A DNA stretch of 25,321 nucleotides from a bacterium (GTDB lineage Bacteria; Krumholzibacteriota; Krumholzibacteriia; G020349025). Below, one piece after another: positions 1,066-25,321 of the stretch (position 1 is the first letter of the stretch; each line of letters starts with the position of its first letter). The stretch is taken from positions 1-25,321 of the forward strand of contig JANLSU010000129.1 in assembly GCA_031362565.1 (NCBI GenBank), in the 5' to 3' direction. Made by a program: the position numbers and the translations under genes. Under the pieces are notes generated by a model. That model was not told the origin of the DNA, did no database searches, and saw only the letters and a program-made list of their open reading frames with translations.

Positions 1066-2348
1066 GGCGTTCCTCCCAAGCGCAACAAACGCGCTTGGGC
1101 GCGCGCCGCAGCCGCCTCCGAGTCGATCCGCGTCAAAGCAATTTCGACGTACGCCCGGTGCGCCTCCAAGACCTCGAAGCCGCTTGCCGCGCCACCGGCC
1201 CAACGCTCGCGAACCAGTCCGGCGACGCGACGCGCGCCGTCAAGAGCCAGCGCCAGTCGGTCGGCGTGCGCCCGCGCCGTTTCGAAAGCGCTGCGTTCGG
1301 CGGCATCTTGGGCGGTGAGTTGCTGCTCGACAGCGCGCCGATCCGCGCGCCGCGCCATCACCATCGCCGCGTCGGCCTCGACACGCGCCGCGCCGGCACC
1401 GGAATCCCATAGCGGCATCACCACATCGACACCGACTCGGTAGCCCAGCACGTGATTGCGTCCGGGCTCGATCAACTGATTGCGCCCGGTCCAGGCGCCG
1501 GCTTCACCGGCAAGGGTGACGCGCGGCCGGCGCTCGGCACGGCGCGTTGCCTGTTCGACCATCGCCGCTTGCGTCTCGATCTCGGTTTGCCGGCTGTCCG
1601 GCGCAACGGCCGCACTCCACTGTGGATCGGGTGTCGCAAGGCGCAGCGTGTCTTCGAGCACGATGGGGGCTTCGGACGTACCGCCGATGACGCCGCGCAG
1701 ATGCAGTTCGGCGCCGCGCGCCTCGCCCTGGGCGGCGTCGAGTGCCGCGCCCTCGAACTCGAGCTGCGTGTCGAGCCGCAGTGCGTCGGTCCGCAGTGCC
1801 GTGCCGCCGCGCGCTAGACGCTCGACTGTTTCTTGTTCACGGCGCAGATCTTCGACACTGCGCGTGAGGACTTCGACCCGGCGCGCCGCCGACCAGAGAT
1901 CGATGCACGCGAGCCGGGTGTCGAGAGCCACGTCCGCGGCGGTGACAGCGCGCGCGGCGCGCGCTTTTTCCACCCCGATGACCGCGGCGCGTTGTCCGAG
2001 ATGCGCGATCCCGCCGTCGTACAACGGCTGCTCGACGCTGAGGAGCGCCGCGAGTTCGCCACCCTCGGTGAGCGCCGGATCGAACCCGTCGATCGGTGCG
2101 AAGGCGGCGCCGCCGCGCGCTTGCACGACGGGACGGAGCGCGCCAGCGGCAACTTTGACGTGGGCCGTGGCCGCACGCACTTCGGCATCGCCCGCCTCCA
2201 TGCGTCCGTGTCTGGAAAGCGCCTGCTTGACGCAGTCTTCTACACCAAGCGCGTCAGCGGCCGGCGCCGAGCGCGGTACCGCGACAAGAAACATCGTGTT
2301 GAACGCTAGAGCGCAGAACACGGTCGAAGTGCGGCGTCGGTCGGACAA
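1062..2348 (-). CDS. TolC-family outer membrane efflux protein
   Basis: TTG start after GAGGA; signal peptide; two OEP repeats (VEQPLYDGG and VVMPLWDSG; GTALRTDAL and GAASGFEVLEA); first gene of the efflux operon. Confidence 0.9.
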   Translation of the reverse strand: MSDRRRTSTVFCALAFNTMFLVAVPRSAPAADALGVEDCVKQALSRHGRMEAGDAEVRAATAHVKVAAGALRPVVQARGGAAFAPIDGFDPALTEGGELAALLSVEQPLYDGGIAHLGQRAAVIGVEKARAARAVTAADVALDTRLACIDLWSAARRVEVLTRSVEDLRREQETVERLARGGTALRTDALRLDTQLEFEGAALDAAQGEARGAELHLRGVIGGTSEAPIVLEDTLRLATPDPQWSAAVAPDSRQTEIETQAAMVEQATRRAERRPRVTLAGEAGAWTGRNQLIEPGRNHVLGYRVGVDVVMPLWDSGAGAARVEADAAMVMARRADRRAVEQQLTAQDAAERSAFETARAHADRLALALDGARRVAGLVRERWAGGAASGFEVLEAHRAYVEIALTRIDSEAAAARAQARLLRLGGTP

Positions 2349-2485: not shown

Positions 2486-3310
2486 TCAGTGCTGGCAGCC
2501 TGGACAATAGAACGTGCTGCGGCCCGCCTGGACGATGCGCCGAATTTCGTGGCCGCAGCGGCGGCAGGATTCCCCAGCACGTCCGTAGACTTCCAACTTG
2601 TTCTGAAACGCACCGTATTGGCCGTCGGCGTCCCGGAAGTCCTGCAGCGTCGTGCCGCCTTCCACGACCGCCTGTTGCAGGACGGCGAGCACTGCCGCAT
2701 GCAGACGCGTCCAGCGCGCCGTGCCTAGACGCCGCGCCGGTGTCATGGGATGTACGCTTGCTTGGTGCAGCGATTCGCACGCGTAGATGTTCCCAACCCC
2801 GACGACAACCGCTGCATCCATCAGCACGTTCTTGATGGGCTTGCGTGCCGCGCGCGCCCGTGCCTGCAGTACGGAGGGCGTGAACGCCGGATCGAAAGGT
2901 TCGGGCCCGAGGCGCGCGAAGCGCGGATGGCGCCGCAACTCGGCCTGCGGAACCACGAACAACATCCCGAACCGGCGCGGATCCTGGAAGCGCAGTTCGG
3001 ACGCATCATCGAGCCGGATCCGGACGTGGGTATGAGCCGCGAGCGGCGCGTCCACCGGCGCCAGGAGAAACCGGCCGCTCATCCCGAGGTGCAAGACGAG
3101 GACGTTGGCATCGTCGAGTTCGAGCAGTAGATACTTCGAACGCCGGCCCACCGCCACCACCCGCCGGCCGATGAGGGCTTTCTGCAACTGCCGCGGTACG
3201 AGGCGCATGCGCAGGCGCGTGTCACGGACGATGACGTGGGTCACCTGCCGGCCCGGCAGCGATCTGGAAAGGCCGCGGCGCAGCGTTTCGACTTCCGGCA
3301 GTTCAGGCAT
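2486..3310 (-). CDS. mutM: formamidopyrimidine-DNA glycosylase / AP lyase (Fpg)
   Basis: N-terminal MPELPEVET after GGGAGG; HLGMSG, DPRRFG, H2TH motif GVGNIYACESL; C-terminal zinc finger CRRC...RSTFYCPGCQ. Confidence 0.97.
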   Translation of the reverse strand: MPELPEVETLRRGLSRSLPGRQVTHVIVRDTRLRMRLVPRQLQKALIGRRVVAVGRRSKYLLLELDDANVLVLHLGMSGRFLLAPVDAPLAAHTHVRIRLDDASELRFQDPRRFGMLFVVPQAELRRHPRFARLGPEPFDPAFTPSVLQARARAARKPIKNVLMDAAVVVGVGNIYACESLHQASVHPMTPARRLGTARWTRLHAAVLAVLQQAVVEGGTTLQDFRDADGQYGAFQNKLEVYGRAGESCRRCGHEIRRIVQAGRSTFYCPGCQH

Positions 3311-3356
3311 CGGGCCTCCCTTGGCGCCATGGCGTCTTTCTTGCCCGACGACACCT

Positions 3357-3656
3357 ATGCGCCGTCCACCAATCTCGATCCTCGTTTTGGGCGCTCTGGC
3401 GCTCGGCCTGATCGCCACCCTGGGCATGCTCGCGATCCGCAATGCGGGCGAGCATCGCGCACCGATTGTGCGTGAAATCAATGACTTGGTGGCGGGATTC
3501 GAACCATCACCGCAAGTGGGGACCGCGGCAATCCAGAGTCGTCCCGACCCCGCGCGCCACCCCCAGCCGCTCGCCGCCGTGGCCGCCGTCGTAGCGGTCC
3601 TCGCAGTGTGGTACCGGCTGCACCGTCAGCACCGCTCGCGCAACAACCGTTCATAG
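3357..3656 (+). CDS. small hypothetical membrane protein (99 aa, two hydrophobic segments)
   Basis: MRRPPISILVLGALALGLIATLGMLAIR and LAAVAAVVAVLAVWYRLHR fill the gap between mutM and the GT4 gene; 31-nt convergent overlap with the GT4 3' end; no clear RBS. Confidence 0.55.
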   Translation: MRRPPISILVLGALALGLIATLGMLAIRNAGEHRAPIVREINDLVAGFEPSPQVGTAAIQSRPDPARHPQPLAAVAAVVAVLAVWYRLHRQHRSRNNRS

Positions 3657-22289: not shown

Positions 22290-22778
22290 TCAGAGAGCCT
22301 CGCGGCTCCACAACACGAAATCCGTACTGGCGGGGGTTGCGCTCATCGATCGCAGGCGGGAAGCGATCTGGCCACGGTGATACCAAGAGTGACCGTAGAG
22401 CTGGGCGAGAATGTCATCGACACTGCTGCGGAATCGGCCCGCGTCGAGGCTCTGATACTCGAACACGCGCCCGAGTTCGGCGGCGTCCAAGCGGGCGAAA
22501 TATTCCGACCACACGCCGTGCACCGCCGCCATCTCACTCGCCAGATCCTCGACCGTGACCCCGGCGGGAAAAATCTCCCGCGGCCGTTCGGCAAGAACGC
22601 CGAAACGGTACAGCCACATCCGGCGCGCCGCGAACAGATGAGCGAATAGGTCGACCGCGGCACCGAAGGCGGGATCGACACGCTCGACAGGCGCGACCGC
22701 CCGGAGCGACGCCAAGACCTTGGCGTGCGCATCCTTTTCGTACTCGAACCAGCGCCTGTAGCGAGCTGCCGACTCCAT
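22290..22778 (-). CDS. DinB/YfiT family protein
   Basis: GGAG RBS; metal-binding His triad in AHLFAARRMWL and QLYGHSWYHRGQI; C-terminal P..TDF. Confidence 0.88.
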   Translation of the reverse strand: MESAARYRRWFEYEKDAHAKVLASLRAVAPVERVDPAFGAAVDLFAHLFAARRMWLYRFGVLAERPREIFPAGVTVEDLASEMAAVHGVWSEYFARLDAAELGRVFEYQSLDAGRFRSSVDDILAQLYGHSWYHRGQIASRLRSMSATPASTDFVLWSREAL

Positions 22779-22807: not shown

Positions 22808-22885
22808 TGGCGCCCCCAACGGGATTCGAACCCGTGTCGCTAGATTGAAAATCTAGTGTCCTAGGCCAGACTAGACGATGGGGAC
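22808..22885 (-). tRNA. tRNA-Glu(UUC)
   Basis: Minus strand GTCCCCATCGTCTAGTCTGGCCTAGGACACTAGATTTTCAATCTAGCGACACGGGTTCGAATCCCGTTGGGGGCGCCA: 7-bp acceptor stem, anticodon arm CTAGA-TT TTC AA-TCTAG, GTTCGAA T-loop, encoded CCA. Confidence 0.97.
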
Positions 22886-22924: not shown

Positions 22925-22954
22925 AACCTACCAGCTTTGCGGGAATCCTGTCAA
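22925..22954 (-). promoter_or_regulatory. sigma-70 promoter for tRNA-Glu
   Basis: TTGACA (overlapping the lexA TGA), 18-nt spacer ending in TGG, then TAGGTT, followed by a GC-rich discriminator typical of stable-RNA promoters. Confidence 0.7.
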
Positions 22955-23595
22955 CGCGCCGCTCGGCGCGGCCGCCCCCCGGGGAGAGAGCGCAGGACCG
23001 CCACTACCAGGCCCAGGACTCGAAACGGGACGTCCGGAGGCACGAGAATCGCCTGCATCGAGTCGTTCTCCGGCTCGAGACGCACACCGTCGCCGTCTCG
23101 GTAGAAGCGCTTCACGGTGGCCTCGTCGTCCACCAACGCCGCGACGATCTCGCCATCGTCGGCGGTGTCCTGTGGGCGCACGAGAACCAGGTCACCATCG
23201 CAGATGTGCGCCTGGATCATGCTCTGGCCCTGCACACGGAGCAGGAAATTGCGCTCGCCGTGCACCAGCGATCGGTCCACGACCAGGCTCGTTTCGACGT
23301 TCTCCGCCGCCAAGAGCGGCGCCCCGGCGGCGATCCGACCCAGAACCGGAATCATCGCCGAATCCGCATGCTGGACTGGGAGGTCCACGACCTCGATCGC
23401 CCGCGACAGATCCTTCTGGCGGCGAATCTTACCCTTACGCTCCAGCGCTTGCAGATGATCGCTGACACCCTTGGTGGACATGATGCCGAAGTCGGCCCCG
23501 ATCTCCCGCAGAGTCGGCGCAAAACCACGCGTCCGAATGGTCGTGACGATGAAATCCAGAATCAACTGCTGACGCTCCGTAAGGGGTCGCGTCAT
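22951..23595 (-). CDS. lexA: SOS transcriptional repressor LexA
   Basis: GGAGG RBS; LTERQ..ILDFI, PTLREIG, HLQALERKG winged HTH; IPVLGRIAAG cleavage site; GQSM (Ser) and ATVKR (Lys) of peptidase S24. Confidence 0.97.
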   Translation of the reverse strand: MTRPLTERQQLILDFIVTTIRTRGFAPTLREIGADFGIMSTKGVSDHLQALERKGKIRRQKDLSRAIEVVDLPVQHADSAMIPVLGRIAAGAPLLAAENVETSLVVDRSLVHGERNFLLRVQGQSMIQAHICDGDLVLVRPQDTADDGEIVAALVDDEATVKRFYRDGDGVRLEPENDSMQAILVPPDVPFRVLGLVVAVLRSLPGGRPRRAAR

Positions 23596-23620
23596 GTTGG
23601 CCTCCAAGATCTAGCGATGA

Positions 23621-23648
23621 GAACTCCGCCACCATACACACCGTTCGC
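23621..23648 (-). promoter_or_regulatory. candidate lexA promoter/operator region
   Basis: Minus strand GAACGGTGTGTATGGTGGCGGAGTTC contains an extended -10-like TG-TG-TATGGT, flanked by GAAC and GTTC half-sites. Confidence 0.35.
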
Positions 23649-23672
23649 TGGAGCCGCCAGCCCCCTCGCCGC

Positions 23673-25321
23673 TCACGAGGCTTGACGCCCCGGCGCGTTC
23701 ACCCCGCCGCTCCGGCGCGTGGCGCTTCCCCGCCGCGCTCGCGTCTTCGCAGCGTCAGCCTCGCTCAACGCGGCCCCACGATTCGCCGCGTGCGCGGCAA
23801 TCGGCACCACGCGTTGCGGCGTCTCGCCGGCGATTTCAATCCGCTCCGCAACGACGCGTGTCGCACGTCCTTCGCGTTCCACGCGTCCATTCACGACCAC
23901 GAGGCGATCCGCGTCGTCCGAGTCCCACACCTCGCGCCGGGTTTCGGAAAACGGCCCCGGAAACACGACCACCTCGAACACACCCCACGGATCCTCGATC
24001 TCCAGAAACGCCATGCGCTCGCCTTGCCGCGTGCGGGTTTCGCGATGGCGACGCACGCGGCCCCCGGCCCGTACCGCAGCGCGTGGTGCCTCATCCGCCA
24101 AGTCGACCGAGCGCTGCATCCCGAGTGTCGTCCAGGTCGAACTCCGATGGAGCAAAGGATCCGAATGCAGCGCCACCCCGAGCGCTTCGCGTTCGAGCTC
24201 AATACGCTCGGCCAACGGCAGCTCCGCATCCGCCGCTTCGTGCTGCGGTTGCGGCACGAAATCGAACGCGAGCTGAGGCGATGTGGTGCGGGTCGCCTGC
24301 TCTGCGCGTTGCGCCACAGCTTCCAGGGCTTGGCGGACCGAAAGCCCTGCGCTGGCCAACGCCCCGGCCTTCGCCAGCGAGCCGAGCGCCAAATCGCTGA
24401 GACTTGCAACCCGCCGGCACAGATCCGCGACGGACCGGAACACACCGTTCTGTTCGCGGTCGCGAATCAGGCGTTCAGCGGCCGGCACCGTCATGCCATG
24501 CACGAGTCCAAGCCCGATGCGCACTCCTTTGCCTTCAACCGCGTGTGCCCACGCACTGTGGTTGACGTCCGCAGGCCAGAGCGGCACCCCGTGCGCCGTC
24601 GCATCCGCAACGATTTCGCGCAGCCACTCGTTACGGTCGCTGCGCGCGTTCAGCAGCGCCGCGGTGAAGGCCGGGCGATCCTGGGCGCGGACATATGCAC
24701 TCCAATAGGCAACGAGCGCCATACCCGTGGCATGAGCCCTGTCGAAGTCGAAATTCCTGAACCGCAGCAGCGCGTCGAAGACACCCTCCGCCTCCGCGAG
24801 TTCGAGACCGGTTTCGAGCGCCCCGCCCAGGAAACGCGACCGCTGGCGAGCCAGATCCCCGATCCGGCGCCGCTGCAACGTCTCCAGGAAGACCGCCGCA
24901 TCCTCGGCGGAATAGCCACCGATTTCGACCGCCACGCGCAGCACTTGCTCGGGATACAGGAGCAGGCCGCGCGATTGCGCCAGAAGCGGCGCGACCCGCA
25001 CCCGCAGCGTTTCACTGGCACCATCCGGCAGCGTCCAGACGCGGTCGAGGGCGGTCTCTTCGCGCGCACCGGCGCGTACCAGGCAAAGCACCGTCACCAG
25101 ATCCGCGAAGTTCGTGGGTCGCATGGCGCGCAGTGCCGATTGGGTGACGGCGCCATCGAACTGCGGAATACCCACCGTGTCGCCGTCGCCAAAGGCTTCC
25201 AGGGTCGCTGGGTCGTCGAGTGGCACATCGCGCAGGTCGAACGTGCCGGTGTGGTGCGCCGCGCGCCGGACGGAGTCCCCCACCACCGGTACGGCTCGCG
25301 TCGCAGCCAACACGGGACGCA
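23673..25321 (-). CDS. dnaE: DNA polymerase III alpha (DnaE)-like protein, C-terminal part, with degenerate catalytic motifs; 5' end outside the window
   Basis: DLRDVPLDD, GDTVGIPQF, RPTNFADL, LLLYPEQV, AY..AY, PADVNHS, VRIGLGLV.G (HhH), ERIELEREALG..LHSDPL, and OB fold GERMAFLEIEDPWG.FEVVVFP are colinear with DnaE; the frame is open to the window edge. Confidence 0.88.
   Translation of the reverse strand, partial: RPVLAATRAVPVVGDSVRRAAHHTGTFDLRDVPLDDPATLEAFGDGDTVGIPQFDGAVTQSALRAMRPTNFADLVTVLCLVRAGAREETALDRVWTLPDGASETLRVRVAPLLAQSRGLLLYPEQVLRVAVEIGGYSAEDAAVFLETLQRRRIGDLARQRSRFLGGALETGLELAEAEGVFDALLRFRNFDFDRAHATGMALVAYWSAYVRAQDRPAFTAALLNARSDRNEWLREIVADATAHGVPLWPADVNHSAWAHAVEGKGVRIGLGLVHGMTVPAAERLIRDREQNGVFRSVADLCRRVASLSDLALGSLAKAGALASAGLSVRQALEAVAQRAEQATRTTSPQLAFDFVPQPQHEAADAELPLAERIELEREALGVALHSDPLLHRSSTWTTLGMQRSVDLADEAPRAAVRAGGRVRRHRETRTRQGERMAFLEIEDPWGVFEVVVFPGPFSETRREVWDSDDADRLVVVNGRVEREGRATRVVAERIEIAGETPQRVVPIAAHAANRGAALSEADAAKTRARRGSATRRSGGVNAPGRQAS

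Follow-up and report, generated by a model that had tools for sequence, protein, structure and literature searches.

Catalytically inactive relatives have been described in several DNA polymerase families. The bacterial Y-family protein ImuB is described as a polymerase homologue with a disrupted active site, a beta-clamp-binding motif and a place in the LexA-linked damage response (PMC6511836, PMC12926913), bacterial PolX of the X family as combining a dead polymerase site with an active PHP nuclease (PMC12926913), and eukaryotic Pol epsilon of the B family as containing an inactive polymerase-exonuclease module, a precedent for the retention of a fold that does not synthesize DNA (PMC2669801). 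For the C family, a 2014 survey presents, in the available part of its text, the three catalytic aspartates (E. coli D401, D403 and D555) as absolutely conserved across the active groups (Timinskas et al., 2014; PMC3919608). A 2026 survey of more than 3000 complete genomes, as far as the available part of its text goes and supplements aside, lists inactive Y, X and B members and dead C-family proofreading domains, and no dead C-family polymerase site (PMC12926913). Our literature search likewise returned no description of a catalytically inactive C-family polymerase, and the name "DnaE4" gave only dnaE486-type alleles. Here we analyze a 25,321-nucleotide (nt) stretch of a Krumholzibacteriota genome (contig JANLSU010000129.1 of assembly GCA_031362565.1; the window hereafter), which ends inside a gene for a DnaE (Pol III alpha) paralogue that directly precedes lexA. 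Judged from sequence and structure models, this paralogue is quite probably a non-catalytic, clamp-binding protein linked to the SOS response.

The paralogue shares with DnaE1 its domain order, its fold and the position of its clamp motif, and its best matches among solved structures are DnaE1 structures; unlike it, DnaE1 has an intact catalytic triad, the finger Arg pair, the RPGP, YQEQ and GYGFNKSH motifs, and a C-terminal domain that binds tau. Like DnaE2 (ImuC), the paralogue is accessory and non-replicative, has an inactive PHP domain, lacks the tau-binding C-terminal domain and is linked to lexA, but DnaE2 keeps all catalytic aspartates and finger motifs, and no imuA or imuB adjoins the paralogue. 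The closest analogue in how the paralogue probably works is ImuB, although ImuB has a Y-family fold and this genome carries its own imuB on another contig. Known operons of lexA with polymerase genes, in the examples described, put lexA first, as in the Geobacter lexA-imuB-C-polY operon (PMC6511836), and ImuB genes follow lexA or stand apart, whereas the paralogue precedes lexA.

Reconstruction of the full-length paralogue

The window is the whole of one contig (C78) of a 133-contig, 5.4 Mb assembly that is 100% complete with 1.85% contamination. The DnaE-like frame (23673..25319, reverse strand) is open for 548 codons, with its stop at 23673 and its other end at the contig end. In DnaE order, it encodes the Pfam domains DNA_pol3_finger (1e-25), HHH_6 (7.8e-20) and an oligonucleotide/oligosaccharide-binding (OB) fold (1.1e-07), and it is colinear with positions 579-1068 of the NCBIfam DnaE1 model. 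An earlier note, made from the letters of the window alone, had read it as a long open frame colinear with DnaE, and this holds. A tblastn search of the genome with its own DnaE1 and DnaE2 placed one further DnaE-like N-terminal half at C5:98-1693 (-), where it is cut off by the first base of contig C5 (Table 1).

An independent Logan assembly of sequencing run X1 contains a 4851-base contig that aligns without gaps to window positions 24000-25321 and extends 1021 bases past the window end. It differs from the window at eight letters; the five listed, at positions 25264, 25269, 25281, 25289 and 25290, are the letters of C5. Because this contig bridges the two halves and the contig ends overlap, C78 and C5 carry, on this sequence evidence, one gene of 566 + 548 - 21 = 1093 codons (about 1093 amino acids, aa). 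By the same comparison, the last 63 bases of the window appear as a contig-end artefact or a minor strain variant. An assembly chimera, put together from two strains or paralogues and with no intact gene in any one cell, could be suspected from a window that ends inside the gene and from a contig-end overlap that is only 55/63 identical. It is nonetheless extremely improbable given the gapless X1 contig (X1 may be the source sample, and the contig is thus not fully independent), the presence in the genome of a single N-terminal and a single C-terminal half of a third DnaE-like gene, and the ten full-length relatives that are colinear across the C78/C5 junction.

Profile models place the gene in the C-family superfamily and outside DnaE1 and DnaE2. 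Its two halves together have the domain order PHP, palm/thumb, fingers, helix-hairpin-helix (HhH) and OB, and the full-length relatives P0151 and P0158 score 554 and 726 bits on TIGR00594 (cut-off 434). On the DnaE1 model PRK05673 (cut-off 1002) the window half scores 250 bits and full-length relatives 631.8 and 772.7, and on the DnaE2 model PRK05672 (cut-off 939) the corresponding values are 211, 480.6 and 555.6 bits; the DnaE2 of the same genome, with intact motifs, reaches 1343.9 bits on the latter. The tau-binding domain of DnaE1 is missing, and a basic tail of ~50 aa stands where the genome's own DnaE1 continues for ~130 aa.

Degenerate catalytic, finger and PHP sites

None of the three catalytic aspartates is present. 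In a HMMER alignment of the C5 half with E. coli Pol III alpha (2hnh), D401 corresponds to Ala396, D403 to Glu398, D405 to Asp400 and D555 to Glu549, and the PDIDxD motif reads P-A-F-E-F-D. In E. coli Pol III, substitution of D401 or D403 abolishes activity. The earlier note had placed Val at the third aspartate: that the residue is not Asp stands, but Val occurs only in the unreliable last 63 nt of the window, and the better-supported version, that of C5, has Glu.

The fingers are similarly altered. Opposite R766/R767 of T. aquaticus Pol III alpha (2hpi), the Arg pair that binds the triphosphate, a HMMER alignment of the window half places Leu145-Glu146, and RAGA, YPEQ and NFDFDRAH replace the conserved RPGP, YQEQ and GYGFNKSH of active C-family polymerases. 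Every altered motif string that had been quoted in the earlier note was recovered at its coordinates (Table 1). The PHP His-x-His is Gly-x-Arg in an alignment with the genome's own DnaE1 and DnaE2, and the paralogue has in this respect gone further than PolX, since its PHP ligands are lost too.

The checks that the earlier note had proposed came out in favor of its reading of an inactive pseudo-polymerase with a non-catalytic role. The upstream half is an open frame with a degenerate DxD and PHP site; a separate canonical dnaE1 and an imuA-imuB-dnaE2 cassette, both with intact motifs, lie elsewhere in the genome; orthologues exist and share the degeneration, with a ratio of non-synonymous to synonymous substitution rates (dN/dS) of 0.23 at a dS of 0.52; and a close relative is modeled with a complete Pol III alpha fold. 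From the motifs we infer that the polymerase is dead.

Conservation and selection

With the N-terminal half as query, orthologues at 44-49% identity were found in five of six further genomes of the GTDB family of the window, hence in 6/7 including its own; this family is the whole order, and the genome without an orthologue is 71% complete. With this query, the remaining 201 genomes of the class all stay below the orthologue score. When 1.84 billion cluster representatives were scanned by HMMER with the window half, the result was four close clusters (41-52% identity) above a drop from 256 to 217 bits, from which point the matches are generic DnaE, and a word-indexed search of 5.8 billion clusters returned ten full-length members of 1005-1190 aa above a drop from 485 to 315 bits. 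One further candidate, P0089, was rejected as an orthologue, all of its motifs being intact as in a different, active DnaE. A contig search for related loci with the single N-terminal half found no relative, and the same kind of search, run with alignment A1, gave 80 loci: four orthologues (L027, L028, L029 and L044) and otherwise ordinary DnaE1. Where source databases name clade members, the name is "DNA polymerase III subunit alpha".

Degeneration is shared and uneven across the clade, as seen in an alignment of all members in which 15 rows cover each motif. The D401 position is Asp in a single member (P0157), the other 14 carrying five different replacements (Glu 7, Ala 3, Gly 2, His 1, Val 1), and the D555 position is divided between Asp, Glu and His (five each). 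The second finger Arg is absent in 15/15 rows, and the PHP His-x-His in all 14 that reach it. The N-terminal half is the most conserved part of the protein (44-69% identity, vs 31-54% for the C-terminal half). The subclade of the window protein has kept the OB fold, which is absent in the five relatives of the same family; these share the ending PRLW[VI]VG.IRS.

Further features concern P0157 and the C-terminal tails. P0157, a metagenome cluster of 1063 aa, has all three catalytic aspartates, RPGP and a near-canonical GFNKAH, and has lost the second finger Arg; on its sequence, it may be a still-active or transitional form. In the window, the low-complexity basic tail lies at 23673-23830 (-), and the proteins of the window's subclade, which end in such a tail, share a last motif R-x-x-[AV]-S-COOH (RQAS, RNAS, SRAS, RRVS; P0001, P0002, P0003, P0004, P0151). 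The C-terminal end motifs of either subclade may be docking or degradation signals.

The paralogue is clearly constrained by purifying selection. For the closest genome pair (G001-G006, 81% identical), Nei-Gojobori estimates from our own script gave dN 0.117, dS 0.516 and dN/dS 0.227, with 100-codon windows at 0.09-0.34 in the folded domains and 0.54 in the C-terminal tail. Control genes of the same pair gave 0.045 (LexA), 0.124 (DnaE1) and 0.185 (RecA, with a frame of 443 codons from ATG to stop). More distant pairs gave 0.28-0.39 at a dS of 1.07-1.40, which is near saturation. The non-synonymous rate is ~2.7x that of DnaE1 (dN 0.117 vs 0.043), and this faster evolution, together with drifting catalytic positions and the loss of OB in five relatives, is what might be expected of a decaying, functionless remnant of a dnaE duplication whose frame has stayed open by chance or through polar effects on lexA expression. 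Such a remnant is highly improbable: frames of 957-1190 codons are open in 15/15 relatives and in 6/6 fetched genes of a second clade described below, dN/dS stays below 0.55 in every window, the fold is modeled with confidence, the clamp motif is invariant, and the genes persist across at least three families of the class.

Predicted fold and clamp binding

As a stand-in for the window protein we modeled P0151, which is 69% and 54% identical to its N- and C-terminal halves. The AlphaFold2 model (50-row alignment) has a mean predicted local distance difference test score (pLDDT) of 86.2 and a predicted template modeling score (pTM) of 0.84, and low confidence is limited to the 41 N-terminal residues (probably mis-called), the clamp-motif linker (939-953) and the tail. 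Foldseek matched it first to M. tuberculosis DnaE1 and to T. aquaticus and E. coli Pol III alpha (E 1e-57 to 1e-67, template modeling scores of 0.63-0.85), and then to PolC.

Between the HhH and OB domains, where DnaE1 and DnaE2 have an internal clamp motif of the Q-x-x-L/M-F type, the window protein has a similar candidate motif, QLAFDF. It takes the form Q-L-x-x-x-F in the clade, its Q and L being invariant in the alignment of all members and, as Q349 and L350, in 12/12 relatives of a further alignment. A complex of two copies of the genome's own DnaN (5-row alignment) with residues 245-500 of the window protein (12-row alignment) was predicted with a score of 0.64 (median of three runs), vs 0.01 for the best control; in a calibration, this mark was reached by 116/157 solved complexes and 2/215 mismatched pairs. 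The three runs share at least 95% of contacts, with a partner pLDDT of 76. The confident interface places partner residues 347-356 (SPQLAFDFVP) in the clamp pocket of one protomer, against clamp residues 170-175, 240-245, 276-278, 318, 342-344 and 361-368. The predicted docking resembles a known binding mode that has been solved many times, and similarity to those clamp-peptide structures may account for the score.

Two features define ImuB-like proteins as a functional class, a disrupted active site and a clamp motif that is still present, and the paralogue has both; it joins that class by analogy and not by homology. Its fold is that of Pol III alpha and not of the Y family, which makes it an analogue rather than a relative of ImuB, no search having been aimed at the RecA-NT and ImuB-C motifs, and the comparison with ImuB drawn in the earlier note is apt for the same two features.

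An operon with lexA

On the same strand and directly 3' of the paralogue, lexA is present in 6/6 loci, with gaps of ~65-115 nt. In the window, lexA probably starts at the ATG of MTRPLTERQ, which lies 12 nt into the listed open reading frame, and the encoded LexA has an A-G in GRIAAGAP, a Ser in GQSM and a Lys in TVKRF, which we take to be the cleavage site and the catalytic dyad, respectively. No promoter-like or terminator-like site was found in the spacer (23608..23672), which fits co-transcription of the paralogue and lexA. A promoter, TTGACA-17-TACTAT, lies ~146 nt before the start of the paralogue (C5:1873-1845 (-); 10/12 consensus positions vs 0.0 expected) and is present in 6/6 loci. 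It is followed by a conserved leader, ~146 nt long in the window genome and longer in relatives, in which Rfam at gathering thresholds found no known RNA family, only tRNAs being found in the scanned loci (L004, L016, L019). The gene upstream of the paralogue on C5 encodes a membrane glycosyltransferase of the PMT_2 family, and the five orthologous loci contain no ImuA or ImuB match, the linkage that characterizes DnaE2/ImuC being absent.

The LexA encoded beside the paralogue shares 64-67% identity with its counterparts in the family and 50-54% with the only LexA present in one other family of the class, and because of this conserved identity we regard it as the primary repressor. The second LexA of the genome, 36-38% identical, belongs to the dnaE2 cassette.

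A 13-mer, G[CT]TG[AG]CGTCGA[TG], occurs in the operon leader (L004 (C5) 1700-1873 (-); upstream in L016-L020) and, in reverse orientation, in the recA leaders of five genomes; on its sequence, it could be a LexA operator or an RNA element. Tried as an operator, it gave 50 matches in the genome, mostly in coding sequence, and was set aside as uninformative.

A second degenerate clade and the history of the family

A second, more degenerate clade of DnaE-like genes, with frames of 1011-1189 codons, emerged from weak third matches in two other families of the class. It occurs in 28/208 genomes (16/23 in family f4 and 12/13 in family f8). In the 5.8-billion-cluster collection it accounts for 20 clusters, which go under the names "DNA polymerase-3 subunit alpha" or "PHP domain-containing protein". 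Its PDIDID motif has become [VIA][LFI][DE][VLI]Q[VIL], with the first Asp lost in 6/6 genes and Gln at the D405 position, and the third Asp is kept; GPGRGS has become GPA[ST]G[LM], RPGP has become R-x-R, and GYGFNKSH is lost. One full-length member falls below the superfamily cut-off (348.5 vs 434 bits). In 5/6 fetched loci lexA lies directly 3', with overlapping frames. Two members of this clade, in G024 and G034, retain the PHP His-x-His, and their PHP domain might be active.

Across the 41 genomes that contributed both positions, the order of a degenerate dnaE followed by lexA was found in f1 (6/7), f4 (3/3) and f8 (2/4), and in 0/27 genomes of the other five families, where lexA, if beside a DnaE-like gene, is upstream of it. 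In a first maximum-likelihood tree (IQ-TREE, LG+G4, quick search; 43 rows), each degenerate clade forms one group with support in the Shimodaira-Hasegawa-like approximate likelihood ratio test (SH-aLRT) of 99 and 100, and the two stand together opposite 28 active DnaEs (SH-aLRT 99.3). In a second tree of 45 rows, rooted on DnaE1, from which deadA_own_C, E1_Gamma1, E1_Woese, E1_Latesci and E1_Alpha were left out and to which seven metagenome members were added, the two clades are again joined (98) and adjoin DnaE2-type sequences (SH-aLRT 91), with P0157 in a basal trichotomy of the window's clade. The lexA synteny is independent support for a common origin of both clades. If the tree is right, the catalytic residues were lost at least twice; the tree and P0157, which keeps all three aspartates, suggest an ancestor that was an active accessory DnaE linked to lexA and repeated loss of catalysis among its descendants.

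The shared gene order also bears on a regulatory reading, in which the main job of the paralogue would be to bind LexA or RecA filaments, for instance to tether or modulate the repressor at stalled forks, with the clamp motif serving for localization. It would account for a "DnaE-like gene then lexA" order in clades less than 30% identical, for frame overlaps in the second clade that suggest translational coupling, and for the N-terminal half, with no obvious remaining activity, being the most conserved part. We nevertheless consider it quite unlikely: in 2/4 f8 genomes the second-clade gene lies away from any lexA match, and lexA operons often hold proteins that do not bind LexA, as in lexA-dinF and lexA-sulA. 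Also unlikely, though slightly less so, is a broader proposal that would make these proteins an ancient SOS component of the uncultured bacteria of the class. The polymerase fold would have turned into a sensor or brake that is bound to the clamp at stalled primer ends and acts physically with LexA or RecA, and its catalysis would have decayed independently in several lineages. Such a protein might bring the repressor to sites of RecA filaments, or hold forks until LexA re-accumulates.

Proposed role and points against it

Taken together, these data lead us to propose a DnaE-derived pseudo-polymerase of ~1093 aa with the full Pol III alpha fold (PHP, palm, thumb, fingers, HhH, OB), in which the active site, the finger residues that bind deoxynucleoside triphosphates and the PHP metal site are degenerate, and the clamp motif and DNA-binding modules are retained. 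As the first gene of the lexA operon it would be expressed from a LexA-autoregulated transcript, and its level would probably rise with DNA damage. Bound to the clamp, and to DNA through HhH and OB, it would then occupy clamp-loaded primer ends without extending them. There it might hold the place or slow replication as a damage-induced placeholder or brake, or serve the active accessory polymerases of the genome as an adaptor. The outcome would be a C-family analogue of the inactive Y-family ImuB.

Several observations weigh against this proposal, beginning with the active site. The D403 and D405 positions are Asp or Glu in 15/15 clade members, seven of the 15 have Glu at the D401 position, and P0154 and P0157 have a fully acidic set that, to go by sequence, could retain residual metal binding or weak activity. 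A paralogue that is still a working, perhaps very error-prone polymerase, coordinating metal through Glu398, Asp400 and Glu549, would fit these residues, as it would the Glu or Asp at the D555 position in 10/15 members, a nearly invariant palm loop (GPG-x-G..GSLV), the three aspartates and RPGP of P0157, and purifying selection that extends to the palm (windows at 0.09-0.30). Against it stand the Ala at D401 in the window protein and the varied replacements of this Asp in 14/15 members, the His at D555 in five, and the loss of the second finger Arg throughout and of both in the window protein, in a family whose active groups are described as conserving all three aspartates (PMC3919608). We therefore regard a working polymerase as very unlikely.

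The remaining points concern regulation, phylogeny and the reconstruction itself. The operon with lexA in 6/6 loci and its conserved promoter may reflect co-regulation only. When the upstream regions of the six orthologous loci and of five recA genes were aligned, no LexA operator was identified, and an exhaustive search for exact dyads or direct repeats in at least 4/6 and at least 3/5 of these regions returned none, leaving no such element shared with recA; we thus infer SOS control from the operon alone. With long branches, heterogeneous composition and quick LG+G4 trees, the two degenerate clades could have been joined through long-branch attraction. The full-length protein is a reconstruction of a gene split over two contigs, whose ends differ at 8/63 bases and which are joined by one bridging contig from the probable source run. 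Finally, any one specific role, brake or adaptor, would be a guess.

Other genes of the window and genome

Outside the operon, the window holds housekeeping genes: fpg, glycosyltransferases, ispG, a peptide ABC transporter, an aldehyde dehydrogenase, a fumarase and a short-chain dehydrogenase/reductase. A tRNA follows lexA here and in two scanned relatives (L016, L019). The next gene encodes a protein of the DinB/YfiT superfamily, a family named for a damage-inducible Bacillus gene. Among relatives, the active accessory DnaE varies by genome, with imuA-imuB-dnaE2 in the window genome and G003 and another active type in G001 and G005. This other type (L113 3484-7035 (+); L114 3022-6684 (-)), of ~1170-1220 aa with PDFDIDF, KIDILGQ, GCFYIES and RPGV, is carried instead of the imuA-imuB-dnaE2 type and forms a long branch among DnaE2-type sequences.

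Table 1 Coordinates of the paralogue, its altered motifs, neighboring genes and related loci (window positions unless a contig or locus is given).
Feature	Location	Strand	Description
Degenerate DnaE paralogue, C-terminal 548 codons	23673..25321	-	Fingers, tandem HhH, clamp motif, OB fold, basic tail, stop
Paralogue N-terminal half	C5:2-1699	-	566 codons from GTG; PHP and DNA_pol3_alpha (Pfam)
Contig-end stretch	25259..25321		63 nt; identical to C5 positions 1-63 at 55/63, 8 differences
RPVLAATR for KMDFLGLR	25296-25319	-	Alignment with own DnaE1 and DnaE2
GIPQFDG for GVFQLES	25152..25172	-	Alignment with own DnaE1 and DnaE2
CLVRAGA for ALFRPGP	25065..25085	-	Alignment with own DnaE1 and DnaE2
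SRGLLLYPEQ, YPEQ for YQEQ	24945-24974	-	Alignment with own DnaE1 and DnaE2
AAVFLETLQRR for ADLLR[RK]AMGKK	24867..24899	-	Alignment with own DnaE1 and DnaE2
FRNFDFDRAH for FAGYGFNKSH	24732..24761	-	Alignment with own DnaE1 and DnaE2
QLAFDF, internal beta-clamp-binding-type motif	24258..24275	-	Residues 349-354, between HhH and OB domains
Spacer between paralogue and lexA	23608..23672	-	65 nt
lexA	22951..23607	-	TIGR00498, 228 bits vs cut-off 111
tRNA-Glu (UUC)	22808..22885	-	Directly after lexA
DinB/YfiT-superfamily protein	22290..22778	-	Not polymerase DinB; Pfam DinB_2 2e-08, DinB 3.5e-06
Fpg/MutM formamidopyrimidine-DNA glycosylase	2486-3481	-	Three Pfam domains; ordinary repair gene, no evident link to paralogue
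DnaE1	contig C85		1178 aa; HxH, PDIDIDF, KMDFLGLR, GVFQLES, RPGP, YQEQ, LRKAMGKKK, GYGFNKSH intact
Cassette lexA2-imuA-imuB-dnaE2	contig C89		Second LexA, RecA-like ImuA, IMS-family ImuB, 1050-aa DnaE2
Second-clade loci	L107 2425-5529 (+); L108 2516-5674 (-); L109 1885-5451 (+); L110 2468-5695 (-); L111 1996-5340 (+); L112 2643-5675 (-)		

Significance

The C family is the bacterial polymerase family for which surveys, in the available parts of their text, report no inactivated members (PMC3919608, PMC12926913), and a fixed partnership of a C-family pseudo-polymerase with lexA is unreported. With database names such as "DNA polymerase III subunit alpha" and, in one case, "PHP domain-containing protein", polymerases can be overcounted and replisomes wrongly reconstructed in these phyla. 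If a DnaE is conserved, under selection and clamp-binding although it lacks its catalytic set, the replicase fold, too, would prove open to recruitment as a scaffold with no catalytic role, much as ImuB was recruited from the Y family, and its fixed position before lexA would tie it to the core SOS circuit rather than to an optional mutagenesis cassette.

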